IMG/VR virus record: IMGVR_UViG_3300040801_001530
Location: 356 to 64,355 of that record
Source: a virus
Reading direction: 5' to 3' (one strand)
Length of the DNA: 64,000 bases
Shown here: one piece after another, positions 5,755 to 46,105 of the stretch
How the letters are laid out: every line of letters starts with the position of its first letter
Numbering within the stretch: position 1 is the stretch's first letter
Translations under genes and position numbers: made by a program
Notes under the pieces: generated by a model
Databases searched by the model: none
What the model was told of the DNA's origin: nothing
Seen by the model: the letters and a program-made list of their open reading frames with translations, nothing else

Positions 5755-6140
5755 TGAGCACCTATCAATTTGCGGCGGGCTATGATAATGCTGGTAGCCT
5801 GGTTAAAGTATCGATACAACCCAACAGCCCCGGCGTTTTTGCTGGTATCCGACGCACAGCCGGTAACGGTCTAGTATATGAAGATGGTTTTTTAAATAGT
5901 GTTTGGAATTTTGGCTTTTTGCGTGCAAGCGGCAGACAGGTTTATAGCGATTTACTGACGGAGCTAGGGTTGGATAGCGCGGTATCGGTTGAGTGTACTA
6001 TTAAGATGCCAAACAACGTGCGCGTATTTACAAATTATAATGCGGTACTAATAAGGCCGGATGTCGGGCGTGCTATTGATTGGACATTAGGCGCACTTAT
6101 TAATGTGCAATTTGAGCTTATCCGTATGAGTGCATTATGA
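5754..6140 (+). CDS. Putative distal tail (Dit-like) protein
   Basis: 128 aa immediately after the tape measure gene. Confidence 0.4.
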   Translation: MSTYQFAAGYDNAGSLVKVSIQPNSPGVFAGIRRTAGNGLVYEDGFLNSVWNFGFLRASGRQVYSDLLTELGLDSAVSVECTIKMPNNVRVFTNYNAVLIRPDVGRAIDWTLGALINVQFELIRMSAL

Positions 6141-9100
6141 GCCTTGATACTACCAAATGGCGTACCCATCCCCAACGTGCAAACGGCTACCTATATATCC
6201 ATAAGCCCGATGTTGTTTGGGAGACTACGATAGACCAAACAACATTTAGTTATCCGATTGTATCTATAGCACATAGTGGCACTATATCCGGCGACCGTTC
6301 TAACGCCGGTGCCGATCAGACTATCAAGGTATCTTCTAGTGGTGGAATATTTAAGGGCTATATTAGGGCACGTTTTGCGCCTAATGCTAGTACGGTCTCA
6401 ATTAATGCCACAAGTCAAGCGGATATAGACTTTGCTAACGGTGATGTGTTAGAGTTTTTAAGCGAGTATCGCTTGTGGACGCGGATCCCACGTATTGAAG
6501 ACGACGGGACTATTAAAAAAGACTACACTATTACTTATCCCGGTTATACTAGCGAACCGCCACCGGTGCCAAATGCGGGCGGCTACTATGCACAATTCGT
6601 GGATGGTAGCGGTAAAATTACAGTAGACTTTGACGCTTCTAGCTCATTCACCATGACTGGTAACAGTATTAGCTATTTTTGGGATTTTGAGGATGGGACG
6701 CCCGGCACATCGAATAGCGCAACGGTTAATGGGGTATCATTCCCTGCGGGGGCGCGGTGGGTACGGTTACAGGTTGAAGATCTAGGTAGTGGGCGGTCTA
6801 TTAATGCACGTACGCTAGTTGTGGGCATAGACAACAGCACAGTTAGCGCGATACCCGCGCAATTATTGAGCCACACACAAACAGTAGCCGATGGCAATAA
6901 TGTGCAGTTTGGCGTTGCCAGCGGGGACATAGGGCGTATCACAGACATACCCGACGGTGCCATCGTAATCTATTTTGAGGATGAGCATTACGGGGAGAAT
7001 AATGAGAGTTTGACGGGTGAGTCTGGCCGAGAACATGTAAAATTTATCGGCTACATAGACGCTGTTAAAACGGGTATACAGGCTAATCAGGCTGAAGATG
7101 TGATATTGGAGTGCATCGGGCCGTTAGGCGCTTTAAAACGTCTGCCAGCGTACCCACAGGTGTTAGAGTATGTAGATACCTCCACTAGCTGGCTAGAGTA
7201 TGATATAGCGCTAAATTGGTGGTTATTCACACATTACCTACTGTATTGGCATAGCACATTTATTAATATATTTGACATAGAGCGTCCTAGCCATTATAAC
7301 CAATACCCTGTCGTGCGCCTTGAGAGTGTTGGTGGCACGCTCTATGACCAGATGCAAGACATAGCTAAGGCGGTTGGTGGCAATGTTACGGCAAACCGCA
7401 ATGGGCGCTTATTGTTCCGCAAGTGGCCTGTTATGCTATCTAGTGCAGACCGTGCTGCTTTAACACCATCTGTACAGCTAACAACTGATGATTGGTTTGG
7501 GCAAATCGCTATTAATGAGCGACATAGTAATAAGACAGGTTGGCTGCGCTCTAGTGCTATTGTGGCAAGCAATACCGCTATAGTACCGGTTCTAGCTATC
7601 GCGCCGGGTGCTGCGCCGGGACAAGGCCGAGATCAACAGACTTTGACACGTCAATTGGTAGCAAGTCAGGCGGAGCTTAACCAGCGTACAGGCGCTTATT
7701 ACGCTTATCTAAACCGCAACATACAAAACCTGCGCGTTAATGTACTGAACAGGGGCAACGTAGCCGATGCGGCAAATCAAGACTTTATACAACTATTTGC
7801 TGACAGTGCAAGCAATCGGCGCGGCTTGCAGTTTGGCTCATCTGATTACTTTGTGGTTACGCAAGTCGATATTAGCCAAGACCCGCTAACGGGTGTTGGT
7901 GCCGAGGTTTGGACATTAGAGCCGATACCCGCTTATGTGGATGGGGTGACCATTGACATACCCAGCGACGGTACAGACTATAATAGCCAACCCCCCCCAT
8001 CATGGGTTCCTATCCCGTTTGAGGATGTCGCAGAACCAGATTTTGTAGACGACGATATACCTACTGGTACCACAGGCATAGCATTAGCCTGGAACAATCC
8101 GCTAGCCTACACGGCAACGCGGGAGGCACCGGGGTGGTCAAGCATTTGGGCACCGGGCACAGGATTCGATGCCGTACGGTCTGTAGTAGGGGATGAATAT
8201 ACTAGTTTTTATCAGACAGGCGCGGGTGCAGCAGGTGCCTATGGCCTAACAGGAACAAATTTATACTATTGCCCAGATGTTACCGCAGGAAGCCCCGCAT
8301 TTACAAATAAACAAGCATTACTGAGTTACAATCTGCTACGCTTACCACGCGGGGTAAACGGTGGCATCATGGCATATGGTGGTGGCACCTCGTTTATTAT
8401 TAGTAATACATTCGATTTAGTGGACGAGTGGTCTTTTAACAGCACGACGGCGGCGGAGACTGATGGTAGTTTTGCCACAGACGCTAATAAGTCGTATCGT
8501 GTAAAGGTGCGAGGTGACTGGCTATATGATAGCCCTAGCCGTGCAGATGGTCAATATAACAGCCTATTAGGCGATTTTACAGACGCATCACGCAGTAATA
8601 ACATTAGCATTAATTCAACAGCCAATGCGGCTGATAACACAACCTATAATGCAGCCGAGGAAGAATTTATATACTACATTAAAAATTCTGCGGGCAACTG
8701 GACAGAAGTTAATATACTGCAAGGCGTAGACAGTGGTGATTATTACGTAAAGAGTGACAAAACACAAGCCACTATTGAGATTATCATTTTTTTAATGAAG
8801 GAGAGCACGGTCAGGGAAGTTGCGTTTGATTATTGGTTTGATAACCCGGCGAGCCTACTATGTGCCACTGGTATTAACTACCAAATCAATAACCAGACCG
8901 TAGCTGGAGCCAATATATCACGATGGGCGAACGAGGATATTAATATATGCTCCCTCGATGAGAATGAGTGGTATAGTGTTACAGAAGCAGACACAGGGCC
9001 TGATACTAATGTTGGCCGTGTGCGCTTATATATTGCTCTTAAAGCACCTACCACATCTAGTGGGGCTATACGGCTTAAAAATATCAGTATAACAACCGAT

Positions 9101-39275: not shown

Positions 39276-39363
39276 GTCTTACTATCATCGCGCTCTAAAT
39301 ACAGCGCACACATTTTATCAATTGCCCCTTACACGCTGGTAAGCATGGGGGCTAAAATGTATG

Positions 39364-39436
39364 TTGGCCTGACTGGACTCGAACCAGCAACCTACACTTT
39401 ATGAGAGTGCTGCGCTAACCATTGCGCCACAGGCCA
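39364..39436 (-). tRNA. tRNA with CAT anticodon (Ile2-lysidine or Met)
   Basis: Full cloverleaf: TGGCCTG/CAGGCCA acceptor, GCACT-CTCATAA-AGTGT arm, TTCGAGT T-loop; C4-G69 and C5-G68 favour Ile2. Confidence 0.88.
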
Positions 39437-39437
39437 G

Positions 39438-39519
39438 TTGCCCCGATAGGAGTCGAACCTACACGGCTAATGCCAGCCGCTTCTAAAACGGCTGCGTCTA
39501 CCAGTTCCGCCACGGGGCA
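39438..39519 (-). tRNA. tRNA-Leu(TAG)
   Basis: Class II cloverleaf, GCCGT-TTTAGAA-GCGGC arm, long variable arm, TTCGACT T-loop, A73. Confidence 0.92.
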
Positions 39520-39561
39520 ATGAGGCGATAACTAAGTTTGTCCGCTTTAGTCTATCGCCAG

Positions 39562-39645
39562 TAGGCTTAGTGGGAGTCGAACCCACACGGGAATTACCCC
39601 AACGGTTTTTAAGACCGTCGTGTCTACCAATTCCACCATAAGCCC
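39562..39645 (-). tRNA. tRNA-Leu(TAA)
   Basis: Class II cloverleaf, ACGGT-CTTAAAA-ACCGT arm, TTCGACT T-loop, A73. Confidence 0.92.
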
Positions 39646-39650
39646 ATAAG

Positions 39651-39720
39651 TAGGGCGTGCCGGTTGCGATTCGGCATCTCCCGCGCCAACGCGGGTGCTT
39701 TTACATTAAGCTAACGCCCT
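39651..39720 (-). tRNA. Degenerate tRNA-like gene (TGG/Pro-like, 16-nt anticodon arm, non-canonical T-loop)
   Basis: Perfect 7-bp acceptor AGGGCGT/ACGCCCT, D-arm GCTT/AAGC, arm CCCGCGTTGGCGCGGG, T-loop ATCGCAA. Confidence 0.55.
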
Positions 39721-39852
39721 CGCCGGTATTTTATAGCGCCCCGCTGCGTCGGCGCTTATTAATAACACCCCGTCGGGTTTTACCGTCGTCACGGCAAAGG
39801 GTTGTGTTTGTGTATCTATAAAAGGGCAAACAACCTCTATCTGAAGCCCCTT

Positions 39853-39921
39853 AAAGCATTGTCGGGATTGAACCGACCACCTCCGCATAGAGCGGCGTAA
39901 TCACCAGATTACTTAATGCCT
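39853..39921 (-). tRNA. Aberrant tRNA-like gene with shortened anticodon arm centred on CTA
   Basis: Acceptor AGGCATT/AATGCTT, D-arm GTAA/TTAC with GG, T-arm GTCGG-TTCAATC-CCGAC, arm CCGC-TCTAT-GCGG. Confidence 0.6.
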
Positions 39922-39973
39922 TCGTAAAGCATCGACACGCCCCATATGTGAGGCTATGTTTATATACAAAACA

Positions 39974-40002
39974 ACTATATCACATCCCGGCGGACTTGTC
40001 AA
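39974..40002 (-). promoter_or_regulatory. Sigma70 promoter for the tRNA cluster, overlapping the last codons of iscB
   Basis: TTGACA-17 nt-TATAGT on the minus strand. Confidence 0.7.
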
Positions 40003-41335
40003 GGGCTGTGTCATGTTTAACAACGATATGCCCTATAGAGCGCTGTAGAACGGTGCAAGCGCTAGGGGATGCGCTGTGTCGTTGCCCGCGTCTATCTGTG
40101 ATGCTAAACCCGCCCTTAGCACGCCAACTGGTAACAAACCCCGTGAATGTGGTACCATCGCGCTTAATCACCCTGACAAAATCACGTGCTCTAATTCCAT
40201 CTCTCGTTTTTGCGCGGGCCTTCGGCTTTGCGCGGGGGAACCCGAATTTATCCGGTTTGCACGCTTGCCTGCTGCCACGGGCTTTGGCAATAATCAACTT
40301 AGGCACGATAGAGCGCGGTATAATAATCTTTGAGCCTATCGCCCCCACGCAGGCCGCGTCTATCCAATGGTCTTTAGGATACCCGGCTAAGGTACGATTA
40401 TATTTAGTAAGCGCCCCCGTGCCCAACTCTACGATTAGCCCCGATGCCTCTAGCCGTTCCCGTAACACAATGCGTGTAGCATTTACAGCCGCCATATCCC
40501 GCATAGATAGCCCCCGCTGTGCTTTTGCTTGCAGCGCGGGGTGTCCAAACTCGTCTGCGGTATTATTACCCTTGCGCTGGTTGCATGGCCCGCAGGCTAT
40601 TGCTAGATTATCAATCCGATTAGAGCCACCGCGCGATTTAGGGACAATATGCTCAATCTGTAGGGGTACGTTTGCGGCACCGCAATAGGCGCACTTCCTA
40701 CCCCACTTCTCTAACAGATATTCCCTAACCTCGTACCCCGCTAGTGTGCCCTGCTGGTATTCCACACCACTAATTGCAGGGTTGGCCATTAGTTGAGTAT
40801 CAAACTTAACATCCTCTAGCGCGTTGTGCTCATAGCCTGTATAACGCCATACACGCTCCGCCCAAACCATAGTATTATCCAAGCGGCTACGCATAGAGGG
40901 CGCAAGCCAACCCTTCGGCACCATGCGACGGTAGGTGATTTTACCTGCCCGCTTATTTGCGCCTAGCACCTCACCAGCACGGGGCCGCCACGGGCGATAG
41001 CGCAGGTTAGCTGTACGGCGGCGGCGACGGTATCCGCTACGATCTTTTAAATGCTTGACCACTACACTAGCCCGGTGTTCGAGATTTGCGCCCCATACGA
41101 CAGTAGGCCCGCGCTTAAAATCAGCTACCAACGCTATACCCGTTGTTTTGCTGCCGGGATCTATTTTGTATTGCATGGCTTGCTTATGGCCGCCTTCGTG
41201 GTCTTTTAATATGATGGTAAATGGCGTGTGGCGATAAACCGCCGCCTTACCATCACGCAACAGCTTACGCGCCCGTGCCGGTTGACATGGCATTAAGGGC
41301 TGCTTATGTTTGTCTAGTACAAAAACACGGCTCAT
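39980..41335 (-). CDS. iscB: IscB RNA-guided endonuclease (PLMP, split RuvC, bridge helix, HNH)
   Basis: VFVLDKHKQPLMPC (PLMP); IDPGSKTTG (RuvC-I); RRRRRTANLRYR bridge helix; LEDVKFDTQ (RuvC-II); EHIVPKSRGGSNRIDNLAIACGPCNQRKG (HNH); HWIDAACV (RuvC-III). Confidence 0.97.
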   Translation of the reverse strand: MSRVFVLDKHKQPLMPCQPARARKLLRDGKAAVYRHTPFTIILKDHEGGHKQAMQYKIDPGSKTTGIALVADFKRGPTVVWGANLEHRASVVVKHLKDRSGYRRRRRTANLRYRPWRPRAGEVLGANKRAGKITYRRMVPKGWLAPSMRSRLDNTMVWAERVWRYTGYEHNALEDVKFDTQLMANPAISGVEYQQGTLAGYEVREYLLEKWGRKCAYCGAANVPLQIEHIVPKSRGGSNRIDNLAIACGPCNQRKGNNTADEFGHPALQAKAQRGLSMRDMAAVNATRIVLRERLEASGLIVELGTGALTKYNRTLAGYPKDHWIDAACVGAIGSKIIIPRSIVPKLIIAKARGSRQACKPDKFGFPRAKPKARAKTRDGIRARDFVRVIKRDGTTFTGFVTSWRAKGGFSITDRRGQRHSASPSACTVLQRSIGHIVVKHDTALDKSAGM

Positions 41336-41369: not shown

Positions 41370-41695
41370 AAAATGCCGTAGAGTTGCGTAACCCCACGGC
41401 ATTTTGTGCCACTGTAAAATGGCCACTCCTAGCCGCTTACGCGGCATCGGGTAAAGGTCTCCTTGGCAATGTTATGCACGGTTTATCGCTAACAGCACTT
41501 CGCTAAGCGGGTTACGATGTTTAACTGTTGAGCCGTATTTTACCCAGACTGGAGAAGCATCCGGGGATACCTATATATTCGCACATAACGTAGGCTATTT
41601 AGCGTTTATGGCGCTATTCGCCTTAGCCGGGATGCAGTGGTATTGTAAACGTTTTGGGGTTACAATACCCCCACGGCGTGGGGCCGCTCTGCAAC
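41370..41695 (-). ncRNA. Omega RNA (HEARO-type) scaffold fused to the terminal CRISPR repeat
   Basis: Minus strand CTACGTTATGTGCGAATATATAGGTATCCCCGGATGCTTCTCCAGTCTGGG...TAAACA...CATAACATTGCCAAGGAGACCTTTACCCG matches the recalled IscB omega RNA core; 3' hairpin 41371-41404; ends approximate. Confidence 0.85.
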
Positions 41696-41829
41696 AAACG
41701 CGATACCATAAATGAGTTACAATACCCCCACGGCGTGGGGCCGCTCTGCAACTTTAGCAAATCGAGCTTTGCCCTTATCGTTTGAGGATTACAATACCCC
41801 CCCCACACGGCGTAGGGCCACGCTAGAAC
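41659..41829 (-). CRISPR. Mini CRISPR array: two identical 37-nt repeats, one degenerate repeat, two spacers (20 and 35 nt)
   Basis: Repeat GTTGCAGAGCGGCCCCACGCCGTGGGGGTATTGTAAC at 41659-41695 and 41716-41752; degenerate copy 41788-41829; spacers 41696-41715 and 41753-41787. Confidence 0.88.
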
Positions 41830-41835
41830 ACACTA

Positions 41836-41864
41836 AGTGTATCATGCATCACGTCTCTTGTCAA
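41836..41864 (-). promoter_or_regulatory. Sigma70 promoter driving array-omegaRNA-iscB
   Basis: TTGACA-17 nt-TACACT; predicted start ~41829-41830, at the first repeat; overlaps a divergent TTGTCA-17-TAAACT (41858-41886). Confidence 0.8.
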
Positions 41865-41920: not shown

Positions 41921-42397
41921 ATGTTATTTAAACCTGAATTAGTGGCTAAGGTATTAGAAGGCCAAAAGACGCAAACGCGGCGGCTTTGGCGCGAAGGCGA
42001 TATGGCAATAAAAGCGGGGCTGCTTTACGAACAGACAGAAGACAGCCCTATTAAATTTGTTCGTCGCGTAACTAAGTCTGGCAAAACCCGTATGCATCGG
42101 GCTGTTAAATCTGACTACGCACTCCAGCCGGGGCGGGGTAAGCCAGGCGTGGCACGTATCCGTCTAGATGCCATCCGCTTAGAACACTTGCAAGACATCA
42201 CACAGCAAGACGCGCAAGCCGAGGGCTTTGCCGGTGTTGACGAGTTTAAAAGCTATTGGGATATGATTAACAACCGCGCTGGTGTGCGATGGGTTGATAA
42301 CCCTAGGGTGTGGGTTTTGGATTTTACGGTAGTAGAGCGTGCCGCCGAGGATGTGCTAGCGGCGCTTGCGCATAATCTGGCGGAGCGTAATGAATGA
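41921..42397 (+). CDS. ASCH-domain protein
   Basis: MLFKPELVAKVLEGQKTQTRR...LQDITQQDAQAEGF...NPRVWVLDF. Confidence 0.8.
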   Translation: MLFKPELVAKVLEGQKTQTRRLWREGDMAIKAGLLYEQTEDSPIKFVRRVTKSGKTRMHRAVKSDYALQPGRGKPGVARIRLDAIRLEHLQDITQQDAQAEGFAGVDEFKSYWDMINNRAGVRWVDNPRVWVLDFTVVERAAEDVLAALAHNLAERNE

Positions 42398-42891
42398 GGA
42401 TGTTAACTATGGATGATAAAAAACAGTGTGCACGGTGCGGGGAAGTCTTGCCGCTTACCGATTACCACGTAACGCGGGCGGCGGATGGTAAGCTATATGC
42501 ATACTGTCGCGCTTGCCATCGTGAATACCAGCGCGTCTGGCGGCAAAAGCGGCGGATACAAAGCCGGATTTTAGACAAGATGCAAATAACCAGCGCCGAT
42601 GGGCCTAGCTTTGCCGCCGGTGCCGAGTGTGCGGCGGGGGTAGCAAGCGATATGATGGTAGAGCAAAGTGCATCATACAATGCGCTAGTAACGCGGGTTT
42701 GTGACGCGCTATCTACAGTAAATAAGATGCGTATGGAGGCATACGCGGCGCTTGATGTGTCGGAGCGGTTAGACCCTGAAGGGTATGAGGCGGCTGTAAT
42801 GGCTAGCCCAGCATATCAGGCTTATGACATGGTATATAACTTGGTACTAAAAGTGTTACAAGATAGTTACCCAGGAGGGGATGATGAGTAA
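42394..42891 (+). CDS. Zinc-finger protein
   Basis: CARCGEVLPLTDYH...YCRACHRE, similar to the N-terminus of 44419..45231. Confidence 0.55.
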   Translation: MRMLTMDDKKQCARCGEVLPLTDYHVTRAADGKLYAYCRACHREYQRVWRQKRRIQSRILDKMQITSADGPSFAAGAECAAGVASDMMVEQSASYNALVTRVCDALSTVNKMRMEAYAALDVSERLDPEGYEAAVMASPAYQAYDMVYNLVLKVLQDSYPGGDDE

Positions 42892-43210
42892 GAAGGCAAC
42901 TAAAAAGGCACGGGAACTATGGCCCGATCGGGTTGGCTATCTAGGCGATAGCAACGTATACACGGCGGCTATGTTGTGGGGGCGTGCCTCTATGGGCTGG
43001 CTATCGTGCGAAGAATTAGCGGTGATAGATATGTTATTACGCACGTTACCAAGTAACGAGCATGATAACCTACTATTCGATATACAGCAAATGCGCACAG
43101 GTGTTTATTATCGGCCTAGCTTCGATGATATACAAACCCGCTACCAAGCCATTATTGACGGGGCTAACCCGCCCCCATTCGATTATAGCGGCGGTAATAA
43201 TGCCGATTGA
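42881..43210 (+). CDS. Hypothetical protein
   Basis: Coupled ORF with RBS GGAGG. Confidence 0.5.
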   Translation: MMSKKATKKARELWPDRVGYLGDSNVYTAAMLWGRASMGWLSCEELAVIDMLLRTLPSNEHDNLLFDIQQMRTGVYYRPSFDDIQTRYQAIIDGANPPPFDYSGGNNAD

Positions 43211-43529
43211 TTATAGCCAATACTGTAGGGACTGGCGCACGTTTAGCCGCGTTATGCGTTTTGTGATAGCGGGCAACCGGTGCGAGTGGTGCGGGGCTGT
43301 GAATTACGAACCACACCCCGACACCGGCTCTAAAGTGATTCTAACCGTGGCACATATTGACCACGACAAGACCAACAACACCCCCAAAAACCTACGTGCT
43401 TTGTGCCAACGTTGCCACCTTAGCCATGATAGAGAACACCATGCCCACAGTCGGGCGGCAAATCGGCGTAAGGCGCTGGAGGATGCGGGGCAATTGAGAT
43501 TAATAGAGGTGGAGGGCACTAATGAGTAG
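43200..43529 (+). CDS. Small HNH endonuclease
   Basis: RCEWCG...LTVAHIDHDKTNNTPKNLRALCQRCHLSHD. Confidence 0.8.
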   Translation: MPIDYSQYCRDWRTFSRVMRFVIAGNRCEWCGAVNYEPHPDTGSKVILTVAHIDHDKTNNTPKNLRALCQRCHLSHDREHHAHSRAANRRKALEDAGQLRLIEVEGTNE

Positions 43530-43743
43530 CAAGCCGTTTGGGCATTTTGAGTGTGACGGTGCAAAGTACTTTTATATCCGGCTTGGCAGCCGCTTGTATC
43601 TGGTAGAGCGTGGCGAGCGCGGGGTGCATTTTATGGCGGTGGGCGAAGCCGAGTCTGGCGGTGGATTTTTAGCGCCGGATGAGTGCCCCGATCCGCCAAC
43701 CCCGCCGGGCAAGCCGGGTTGGACGGGGTTAAACAAGCCATAA
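43522..43743 (+). CDS. Hypothetical protein
   Basis: Coupled ORF with RBS GGAGG. Confidence 0.45.
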   Translation: MSSKPFGHFECDGAKYFYIRLGSRLYLVERGERGVHFMAVGEAESGGGFLAPDECPDPPTPPGKPGWTGLNKP

Positions 43744-44411
43744 TGGGTGGATTACGGTTACTTGACTTGTTTTGCGGGGCTGGCGGCTGTGCTGGCGGCT
43801 GTGCTGTCGGCTACCATCGGGCGGGGTTTGCTGAGGTTGTGGGGGTGGACATCGCCCCGCAGCCTAATTACCCTTTTACGTTTGTATTAGGTGACGCGCT
43901 AGAGTATGTTAGCAAGCATGGGCACACATTCGACATGATACACGCTAGCCCACCATGCCAAGCGTACTCTATCACATGCCACATACACGGCAAAAGTAAG
44001 AGCTACCCCGACTTAATAGGTGCAACACGTGCGGCGTTACGTGCCACGGGTAAGCCGTATGTTATCGAGAATGTGCCAGGATCGCCGCTTGTAAATCCGG
44101 TTAAGTTGCGCGGTGATATGTTTGGGCTTCGTGTGCTTAGAGAACGATGGTTCGAGACTAACCCTTGGCTACTATCTCCCCCGATGCCACCGCGCCCCAA
44201 AGACGCATACACTAACGTAAGCCGTGGGTATTCGTCTTTTAGTGCGGGGGCTACTTATATTTGCGTAGCTGGCCATAATTTTAGCCGCGCCGACGGGGCT
44301 AAGGCTATGGCCATAGATTGGATGCAAGCACGCGACGAGCTAGCGCAAGCAATACCGCCCGCTTACACGGAATATATAGGTAAGCAAATGATAAGAGTAA
44401 TAGCAGAATAG
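43743..44411 (+). CDS. C5-cytosine DNA methyltransferase-like protein (short phage type)
   Basis: LLDLFCGAGG, VGVDI, IHASPPCQAYS, YVIENV. Confidence 0.8.
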   Translation: MGGLRLLDLFCGAGGCAGGCAVGYHRAGFAEVVGVDIAPQPNYPFTFVLGDALEYVSKHGHTFDMIHASPPCQAYSITCHIHGKSKSYPDLIGATRAALRATGKPYVIENVPGSPLVNPVKLRGDMFGLRVLRERWFETNPWLLSPPMPPRPKDAYTNVSRGYSSFSAGATYICVAGHNFSRADGAKAMAIDWMQARDELAQAIPPAYTEYIGKQMIRVIAE

Positions 44412-44418
44412 GTGTGAT

Positions 44419-45231
44419 ATGTGTGAGACAACTAAGGTATGCGCAAAGTGCGGTAAAGAGAAGCCGTTAAGTGAATTTTATCGGCAGGCAGCCTGTAGTG
44501 ATGGCTGTGGGTCTTATTGTAAGGAATGTACCCGCGAATACGAGCGGGAACGTTACGCCAATGACCCGGAATACCAGGAACGCAAGCGGGAACGCAATCG
44601 AGAATACAACCGGGTGCGCTATGCCAATGACCCGGAATACCAGGAACGCAAGCGGGAACGTAATCGGGAACGCCGGGCCAATGACCCGGAATACCGGGAA
44701 CGCGAGCGGGAACGCTATGCCAATGACCCAGAATACCGGGAACGCAAGCGGGAACGCGAGCGGGTGCGCTATGCCAATGACCCGGAATACCGGGAACGTA
44801 AGCGGGAATACAAGCGGGAACGCTGGGCCAATGACCCGGAATACCGGGAACGTCACCGGGAATACAGGCGGGCACGTCGCGCTAAAAACCACGGCCTACC
44901 GTTTGCGTGGGGCACCGAAGACAGCCAGCGGGCACTAGACTATTGGCATGGGCGCTGCGCTTATTGTGGGGAGCCGTTAGCTGATTTATTTGGCGATGTC
45001 GTGCCACACATGGATCACTATATTCCCATCTCATACGCGGGCGAAGACAACCCCGGCACGGTACCGGAGAACATGTTACCGACGTGCTCTGAATGTAACT
45101 TAAGTAAAAACGCCGCTATGCCCGAAGAGTGGGTAGAACGCACATTCGGTAAGCGCAAGGCCAAAGGGATTATTAAGCGCATACTAGAATACTTTGAGTG
45201 GGTAGAGGATACCATGCTAGATGCGGATTAG
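44419..45231 (+). CDS. HNH endonuclease with N-terminal zinc finger and six ANDPEY charged repeats
   Basis: CAKC...CKEC; repeats; RCAYCG...MDHYIPIS...NMLPTCSECNLSK. Confidence 0.8.
   Translation: MCETTKVCAKCGKEKPLSEFYRQAACSDGCGSYCKECTREYERERYANDPEYQERKRERNREYNRVRYANDPEYQERKRERNRERRANDPEYRERERERYANDPEYRERKRERERVRYANDPEYRERKREYKRERWANDPEYRERHREYRRARRAKNHGLPFAWGTEDSQRALDYWHGRCAYCGEPLADLFGDVVPHMDHYIPISYAGEDNPGTVPENMLPTCSECNLSKNAAMPEEWVERTFGKRKAKGIIKRILEYFEWVEDTMLDAD
44540..44880 (+). repeat. Imperfect coding tandem repeat, core GCCAATGACCCGGAATAC x6
   Basis: Six copies read directly, one with a G>A variant. Confidence 0.9.
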
Positions 45232-45273
45232 GTAAACATAATAGAACTTATCACGAGTTATGAAGGTAGGTAA

Positions 45274-45354
45274 ATGATGCTACAACTAACACCGGATAGC
45301 GTACACTGTATAGATGGTCTGGCTTTACTCAATGCATTACCAACCGAATCGTAG
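45274..45354 (+). pseudogene. Truncated N-terminus of an N4/N6 DNA methyltransferase
   Basis: MMLQLTPDSVHCIDGLALLNALPTES* resembles the IHCGDCLELLKxLPDESVD start, then stops. Confidence 0.4.
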
Positions 45355-45493
45355 GGGCTAAAGGCTAATAGAATTAGCCACATATGTCTATAGTTAAGGG
45401 CTACTACTATATCCGCACGTTTTAGCGTTTGCATCCCGTATGTGTTTGTGTTATTATAAGGGAATATGGTATCTAAGCAAAACAGGCTGTCTA

Positions 45494-46105
45494 ATGTATG
45501 ATATTATCTATGCGGATCCACCCTGGCTTTATCGCGTATGGTCTGATAAAGGCACAGGGCGTAGCGCGGAGCAACACTATAGCACCATGAGCCTAGAGGC
45601 GCTTAAGCTCGTACCAGTGGCACGGCTAGCTAACCCTAACAGTGTATTACTGATGTGGGTAACGTGGCCTAATCTAGTAGAGGCGTTAGAGGTGGGGGCG
45701 GCGTGGGGCTTTGCATATAAAACGTGTGCCTTCGATTGGCTTAAGCGCACATCTACAAACGCAACTTGGCATATAGGATTAGGACACTACACGCGGGCTA
45801 ATTCGGAGCCGTGCCTGCTGTTTACGCACGGCAAGCCCCTAACGAGGCACAATAAAGGGGTTAGGCAACTGATAGCGGATGACAACGGTACATTACTAGC
45901 CCCGCTTGTTGCGCCCATTGCTAGGCACTCTAAAAAGCCCCTAGAAGCCTATGACAGAATTGATAAGTTGTGGCCTAACGCTAGCAAGGTAGAGTTATTT
46001 GCACGCCAGCGGCGCGTTGGGTGGACTAGTCTAGGTAATGAGATAGATGGCAAGGATATTAGCCAGGCGATAGAAGATTTAATATTAGTGCAAGATAGCG
46101 TATAA
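45494..46105 (+). CDS. MT-A70-family adenine methyltransferase
   Basis: YDIIYADPPW, LLMWVT, GLGHYTRANSEPCLL, HSKKP, VELFARQ. Confidence 0.88.
   Translation: MYDIIYADPPWLYRVWSDKGTGRSAEQHYSTMSLEALKLVPVARLANPNSVLLMWVTWPNLVEALEVGAAWGFAYKTCAFDWLKRTSTNATWHIGLGHYTRANSEPCLLFTHGKPLTRHNKGVRQLIADDNGTLLAPLVAPIARHSKKPLEAYDRIDKLWPNASKVELFARQRRVGWTSLGNEIDGKDISQAIEDLILVQDSV

Follow-up and report, generated by a model that had tools for sequence, protein, structure and literature searches.

The window, by which we mean the whole 64,000-nucleotide stretch of DNA that was analysed, is part of a viral contig (64,579 bases, about 82% complete) and carries on its minus strand an iscB gene whose product, judged from its sequence, is an intact-looking IscB, a nuclease related to Cas9 but smaller. 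In Pfam, the RRXRR domain (PF14239) covers residues 4–196 of the protein (E = 7.2e-55), and HNH_5 (E = 1.5e-13) and HNH cover residues 215–264; QPLMPC is found at residues 12–17, and the RuvC and HNH motifs IDPGSK, IEHIVP...N and DHWIDA are readable in the sequence, as for an HNH domain set into a split RuvC domain. The protein also aligns to the solved IscBs 9k30, 7xht and 7utn, with E values down to 3.7e-38. Neither Cas1 (PF01867) nor the Y1 transposase TnpA (PF01797) was found in the contig; as about 82% of the viral genome is represented, absence of cas1/cas2 from the phage is not thereby proven. HEARO/IscB genes are common in viral contigs (PMC9755519).

Just downstream of iscB lies a cluster of tRNA genes (39363–39934, minus strand), in which ARAGORN called Met(CAT), Leu(TAG), Leu(TAA) and 'Pyl'. 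The 'Pyl' tRNA, with a CTA anticodon, was placed at 39852–39922, where Rfam makes no call, having instead a tRNA at 39651–39720. Recoding of TAG, considered because of this CUA-anticodon call, was rejected, since the ORF statistics give no sign that TAG is a sense codon. The strongest promoter-like site of the region (39974–40002, minus strand; TTGACA, 17 nt, TATAGT with TG; 11/12 matches) is inside the last iscB codons and faces the tRNA cluster; it may drive the tRNAs. Divergent from the iscB unit, at 42394–46105 on the plus strand, are two endonuclease VII/HNH-like genes and two DNA methyltransferase genes, so that the phage carries several nucleases and DNA modification genes beside its RNA-guided nuclease.

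Upstream of iscB, inspection of the minus strand revealed, in this order, a degenerate repeat, spacer S1, a repeat, spacer S2, an identical repeat, an 8-nt loop and an anti-repeat (Table 1). The 9 nt that follow the degenerate repeat, CCUCAAACG, are similar to the loop that follows the terminal repeat, CCCAAAACG. A reading of S1 as a decayed copy of the scaffold was rejected: its similarity to the downstream RNA was matched by 518 of 2000 shuffles, and its first 9 nt alone resemble the loop. The anti-repeat is followed by CCGGCUAAG, a continuation shared with one of the IscB relatives considered below (L015). The promoter-like site found upstream of the array by a consensus scan has its predicted start at about the first base of the degenerate repeat, just downstream of which the region is not covered by RNA contigs. 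In addition, the 3′ end of S1 and the first two bases of the middle repeat together read TGCTAAAGT, which to the eye resembles an extended −10 element. At the other end of the unit, between the omega RNA and the ribosome-binding site of iscB, the terminator-like stem is an inverted repeat, flanked by A and U runs, that forms a 14-bp stem in the minimum free energy (MFE) fold.

Table 1. Features of the iscB unit, in minus-strand order (positions in the window)
Feature	Position	Strand	Length	Remarks
Promoter-like site	41836–41864	minus		TTGACA, 17 nt, TACACT, with TG before the second hexamer; consensus scan, 10/12 matches
Degenerate first repeat	41788–41829	minus	42 nt	5-nt insertion and several substitutions; GGUAUUGUAA strand kept
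Spacer S1	41753–41787	minus	35 nt	
Middle repeat	41716–41752	minus	37 nt	Identical to terminal repeat
Spacer S2	41696–41715	minus	20 nt	Directly abuts the scaffold; guide segment of the expressed omega RNA
Terminal repeat	41659–41695	minus	37 nt	5′ half of the guide-adaptor domain (HEARO alignment, energies, relatives)
Outer stem, 5′ strand	41689–41695	minus		Within terminal repeat; 41684–41689 in the model register
Hairpin 1	41669–41683	minus		Within terminal repeat
Hairpin 2, 5′ strand	41659–41668	minus		Within terminal repeat
Loop CCCAAAAC	41651–41658	minus	8 nt	Closes hairpin 2
Anti-repeat	41631–41650	minus		Hairpin 2 3′ strand, CA linker and outer-stem 3′ strand
Hairpin 2, 3′ strand, GUUUACAAUACC	41639–41650	minus		41639/41640–41650; CA linker is next
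Outer stem, 3′ strand, CUGCAUC	41631–41637	minus		
Omega RNA (HEARO), core scaffold	41451–41630	minus		RF02033 match; covered by RNA contigs
Omega RNA, 3′ extension	41370–41450	minus		Further hairpins and a terminator-like stem (41370–41405), then a U run
iscB (P0001)	39980–41335	minus	451 aa	PLMP, RRXRR/bridge helix, HNH and RuvC motifs

Pairing of the repeat with the anti-repeat and the HEARO model

The first-pass annotation had noted that the terminal repeat is followed, after an 8-nt loop, by a segment that pairs back to it, and this arrangement was confirmed on the minus strand. GGUAUUGUAA and UUACAAUACC form a perfect 10-bp helix, plus a C–G pair across a 1-nt bulge; in full-length folds this long helix (hairpin 2) was recovered with pair probabilities of 0.96–0.99. 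The outer helix, UGCAG with CUGCA, has the five pairs that had been described, and is of low probability in the full-length thermodynamic ensemble. Between the outer helix and the long helix sits the repeat's own CCCC...GGGG hairpin (hairpin 1). It does form, but CCCCACG and CGUGGGG cannot pair over all 7 bp, as had been drawn, because the loop would be of 1 nt; at most six pairs are made around a 3-nt loop. One G is common to both inner helices, a further correction to the original pairing. For the isolated 70-nt domain, the energy of the three-helix junction is −21.7 kcal/mol, against an MFE of −22.2 kcal/mol.

The outer stem can be drawn in two registers, GAGCGG with CUGC-UC, as in the HEARO model, or GUUGCAG with CUGCAUC, with one U–U mismatch, and their energies are close (−21.4 versus −20.3 kcal/mol). 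With no close relative to decide by covariation, we favour GUUGCAG/CUGCAUC as the probable register, because the scaffold of the relatives begins with GU directly after the guide and because the first base of the repeat is then also the first base of the scaffold. Perfect stems of at least 10 bp with a short loop occur at about eight places in the window; 20 shuffles had about 0.45 on average. Taken alone, the 81-nt piece has a folding energy within the usual range of shuffles (z = −0.65); as the thermodynamics of the isolated piece is unexceptional, the weight of the evidence is carried by the homology to the HEARO model.

The HEARO family (RF02033) matches 41451–41689 over positions 1–211 of the 211 in the model, with 65.1 bits (E = 4.6e-12), which is below the Rfam gathering score of 83; the scores of the IscB relatives range from 46 to 156 bits. 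The match is on the same strand as iscB and directly upstream of its ORF start at 41335, with the guide at the 5′ end of the RNA. The repeat and the anti-repeat fall on model positions 1–59, that is, on an outer stem enclosing two hairpins. The proposal that the locus encodes a natural single-guide RNA was thus borne out in that a repeat:anti-repeat structure in cis leads into an omega RNA upstream of the iscB gene. The additional proposal, that this structure replaces the usual 5′ stem of the omega RNA, was not: both the covariance model and the relatives identify it as the usual 5′ guide-adaptor domain. For OgeuIscB, the guide-adaptor hairpin has been described as corresponding to the repeat:anti-repeat duplex of Cas9 (PMC9640706).

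The relatives share a common plan, in which an outer stem, a CCCC...GGGG hairpin and a second hairpin are followed by CAGCC or CCGGC; in L055–L057, for instance, GUCAAC is followed by a CCC...GGG hairpin, a CUU-GUAA-AAG hairpin, GUUGAC and then CAGCC. Among them, the outer stem changes on both strands together (CAAC/GUUG, CAGC/GCUG, CACU/AGUG, UGAGUC/GACUCA and UAUCC/GGAUA), a pattern of paired changes into which UGCAG/CUGCA of the window fits, and in hairpin 1, which also covaries, both sides change in 8 of the 12 predicted pairs in the alignment of relatives. The length of the second hairpin varies among the relatives, reaching 9 bp in L012; in the window it is 10–11 bp, lengthened from 3–4 bp. 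The MAFFT alignment was poor over this variable hairpin, and RNAalifold, run on it, recovered hairpin 1 alone.

No IscB relative above 56% identity was found in viral contigs, metagenome contigs or a set of 5.8 billion proteins, and all of the approximately 44 relatives examined (40–56% identity) have plain omega RNAs, with the upstream array absent. The 29-nt core of the repeat has no exact match in viral contigs, and the locus as a whole gave no blastn match among 50,697 phage records. In L040, three copies of an 18-nt motif, GTTACCTATGATCCCGGT, one of them a variant, are spaced 26–27 nt from start to start at 1519–1620, about 400–480 nt upstream of the gene for an IscB relative; this motif, which has no relation to the omega RNA, may be operator-like. 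L005 and L006, which are phage contigs of about 100 kb, each have two full HEARO RNAs (2742–2957 and 6080–6295), about 3.3 kb apart, which suggests two IscB units in tandem.

Transcripts, spacers and the use of the array

The stretch is present in four runs of one microbial-mat sample, three of them metatranscriptome libraries and the fourth a run that we guess to be of DNA. The contigs assembled from the three RNA libraries cover 41376/41385/41398–41688 and 41659–41745, as well as the tRNA area (39644–39934). RNA coverage of the unit therefore extends from about 41376 to at least 41745 and includes the scaffold, the terminal repeat, the 20-nt spacer S2 and most of the middle repeat, at least the last 30 nt of which run on into S2 in the contigs from all three libraries. 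These are assembled contigs from a single sample, from which transcript ends, strand and rare species cannot be read. In the same RNA contigs, iscB, S1, the degenerate repeat and the divergent neighbouring gene had no coverage, and the junction of S1 with the middle repeat was absent from the assembly graphs of all three libraries; the presumed DNA run shows patches of low coverage over the region. The breaks at 41688, 41659 and 41745 are assembly artefacts, as 31-letter words were used on a repeat of 37 nt. The 3′ ends at 41376, 41385 and 41398 fall at the terminator-like 14-bp stem with its U run. Coverage and 3′ ends together point to a stable RNA of about 340–380 nt, with the whole terminal repeat, S2 and at least most of the middle repeat, besides the scaffold and the terminator. 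Moreover, since the RNA contigs stop within 41370–41405 and none covers iscB, the mRNA for the nuclease seems to be far rarer than the guide RNA in this sample.

The guides of IscB are of about 16–17 nt (PMC9640706). Neither S1 nor S2 has a match elsewhere in the window; in viral contigs, no protospacer was found for S2 and no exact match for the 3′ 22-mer of S1. In 596 Gb of genomes, S2 has two exact 20-nt matches, where about one is expected by chance. The first is in a Thermodesulfobacteriota sequence (L053, 596–618), where the last 3 bases of the repeat also match, for 23 nt in all, and the second in Leuconostoc litchii (L054, 1905–1924). The gene matched in the former is, on our own reading of the ORF, presumably that for heterodisulfide reductase subunit B. 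Nothing else in common was found between these two genomes and the phage, and with about one match expected both were set aside as chance matches rather than targets. The array also departs from one acquired adaptively by Cas1-Cas2: its spacers are unequal (35 and 20 nt), its degenerate repeat adjoins the predicted promoter, where an adaptive array would have it at the leader-distal end, and protospacers were not found in the searches above.

We consider it probable, at about 80%, that the paired segments make up the 5′-terminal guide-adaptor domain of an omega (HEARO) guide RNA that belongs to a phage-encoded IscB, and that the first 37 nt of this RNA have been copied into a mini-array of three repeats. 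In this reading, the terminal repeat contributes the small hairpin in full together with the 5′ strands of the outer stem and of the second, lengthened hairpin, and both returning strands come from the anti-repeat; S2, immediately 5′ of the adaptor domain, would be the guide. Guide, adaptor, core scaffold and 3′ terminator hairpin are carried on one naturally occurring RNA of about 340–380 nt which, by analogy with the solved IscB complexes, would bind IscB and direct the cutting of S2-complementary DNA beside a target-adjacent motif. The upstream units of the array would be dispensable for the working complex.

The upstream repeats could instead supply no guides and serve as a regulatory or stabilising leader. 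They might protect the RNA as a 5′ stem-loop, carry an internal promoter, or compete for pairing and so toggle the adaptor between an active and an inactive fold. In the expressed RNA the guide is preceded by 30 nt or more of the middle repeat, and the repeat by itself folds into a stable hairpin (−15.9 kcal/mol). In addition, the extended −10 that we recognized by eye would place a transcription start at the very beginning of the middle repeat, where RNA coverage begins. However, the contig ends at 41745 and 41688, being artefacts of the assembly of repeats, give no evidence of a start site, and the relatives function without such a leader. We regard a leader role as possible, if rather unlikely.

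A working array, in which the upstream units are excised as crRNAs that pair with the one anti-repeat, whether in trans or in cis across a long loop, so that S1 and S2 are both used in the manner of crRNA and tracrRNA of Cas9, appears improbable. Its repeat of 37 nt and spacer of 35 nt are of CRISPR-like size, and the middle-repeat crRNA could pair with the anti-repeat in trans, as the first-pass annotation had pointed out, because the repeats are identical. DelIscB, moreover, tolerates the deletion of about 100 nt between its first repeat and the anti-repeat with its function kept, which implies pairing across the intervening units of the array (PMC12660989). In folds of a transcript beginning at the degenerate repeat, this repeat takes the anti-repeat with a probability of about 0.4. 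Against the middle repeat, however, the tethered terminal repeat took the anti-repeat in folds (0.98–1.0 for most pairs versus 0.00). Against a working array also stand the missing S1/repeat junction in the RNA assembly graphs, the unequal lengths of the spacers and the failure to find adaptation genes in the contig (Cas1 profile); furthermore, a separate transcript beginning with the anti-repeat was not evident. Finally, the hairpin could have arisen by chance or be a simple terminator with no role in a guide RNA; this would agree with the unexceptional folding energy of the 81-nt piece but can be dismissed, as a HEARO match over the full model, directly upstream of iscB, encloses the hairpin, perfect 10-bp hairpins are about 20-fold less frequent in shuffled sequence, and the hairpin is transcribed through and does not terminate the RNA.

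Relation to known systems and origin of the array

CRISPR-associated IscB was first reported by Altae-Tran et al. (2021, Science 374:57), as related in PMC11610941 and PMC12660989. DelIscB (457 aa; Zhang et al., 2025) has a non-coding RNA with spacers, repeats and an anti-repeat, in which the direct-repeat/anti-repeat hairpin forms in cis and can be shortened, and the system was proposed as an intermediate between OMEGA and type II CRISPR/Cas9 (PMC12660989). The suggestion of the first-pass annotation that the locus captures the transition from omega RNA to crRNA/tracrRNA is therefore not new, but the published reading of CRISPR-associated IscB (PMC12660989). Our locus is similar in its IscB of about 450 aa, in the absence of cas1/cas2 (here by the Cas1 profile, in a contig about 82% complete), and in an upstream RNA with spacers, repeats and an anti-repeat, in which a direct-repeat/anti-repeat hairpin precedes the omega scaffold. 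Two of the three repeats of our locus are identical; the repeat makes a perfect 10-bp helix and an outer stem of 5–7 bp with a downstream segment, and RNA contigs span repeat, spacer and scaffold. Unlike DelIscB, the locus comes from a microbial mat, on a phage contig of 64.6 kb; just 8 nt separate its repeat from the anti-repeat, and, the adaptor domain being branched, a hairpin also forms within the repeat. The nearest protein relatives found (at most 56% identity) have no array, which suggests a separate origin.

The RNA has the position, strand, full-length model match and guide directly 5′ of the adaptor that are typical of canonical omega RNAs (RF02033), such as that of OgeuIscB, and the arrangement of outer stem and inner hairpins seen in the relatives L010, L012, L015 and L055–L058. 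It differs from the canonical form in its second inner hairpin (10–11 bp and an 8-nt loop versus 3–4 bp and a tetraloop), in the repetition of its first 37 nt upstream and in a score below the Rfam cut-off. In contrast to IscB transposons of the IS200/IS605 type, TnpA was not found, and the guide is flanked by another repeat and not by an insertion junction. The order of elements is that of the crRNA:tracrRNA of Cas9 and of engineered sgRNAs, with a guide, a lower stem (here the outer stem), a bulge (the linker and hairpin 1) and an upper stem (hairpin 2), and, as in an engineered sgRNA, a loop stands at the point where two RNAs are joined; the 8-nt loop is the position at which crRNA and tracrRNA would be separate molecules. 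Unlike in Cas9 systems, the two halves are naturally joined, by 8 nt, and there is no separate tracrRNA gene; the effector has 451 aa and no REC lobe, and an adaptation module is lacking (Cas1 absent from the contig). Mini-CRISPR arrays were reportedly described in archaeal viruses by Medvedeva and co-workers in 2019. The array described here resembles such virus-borne mini-arrays in being short (2–4 repeats), in its location in a viral genome and in the lack of adaptation genes, but its repeats come from the phage's own guide-RNA scaffold rather than from a host array. That the array plays a part in virus–virus conflict is only a guess, since no spacer targets were found in the window or in viral contigs.

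We infer that the mini-array arose in the phage lineage, the guide and the first 37 nt of the scaffold having been copied upstream, without Cas1-Cas2. Copying without adaptation is suggested by the failure to find Cas1 or the Y1 transposase, by the unequal spacers and by the lack of an array in the approximately 44 relatives. A bolder version, which we think doubtful, is that a CRISPR-like array was born here directly from an omega RNA, independently of the other CRISPR-associated IscBs and without Cas1-Cas2, by serial copying or recombination of a unit made of the guide and the 5′ half of the guide-adaptor domain, with the break point exactly in the loop that corresponds to the crRNA/tracrRNA boundary of Cas9 systems, and that the upstream units are used as alternative guides through the single anti-repeat, in cis or in trans. 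If this were true, the locus would be a natural, working intermediate between single-guide and dual-RNA systems. Combined with the RNA found in situ, the small locus (about 1.9 kb) offers a natural test of whether splitting an omega RNA into crRNA-like and tracrRNA-like parts is feasible, and of whether the upstream units of such an array are used.

For CRISPR-associated IscB, the locus is one more example and leaves the published picture unchanged. What makes it useful is that it is clean and expressed, and that each base of the repeat can be assigned a place in the adaptor domain of the omega RNA. It shows how a CRISPR repeat can derive from the scaffold of a guide RNA: the 37 nt of the repeat here are the start of the omega RNA up to a hairpin loop, beyond which the remaining scaffold retains the complementary strand.
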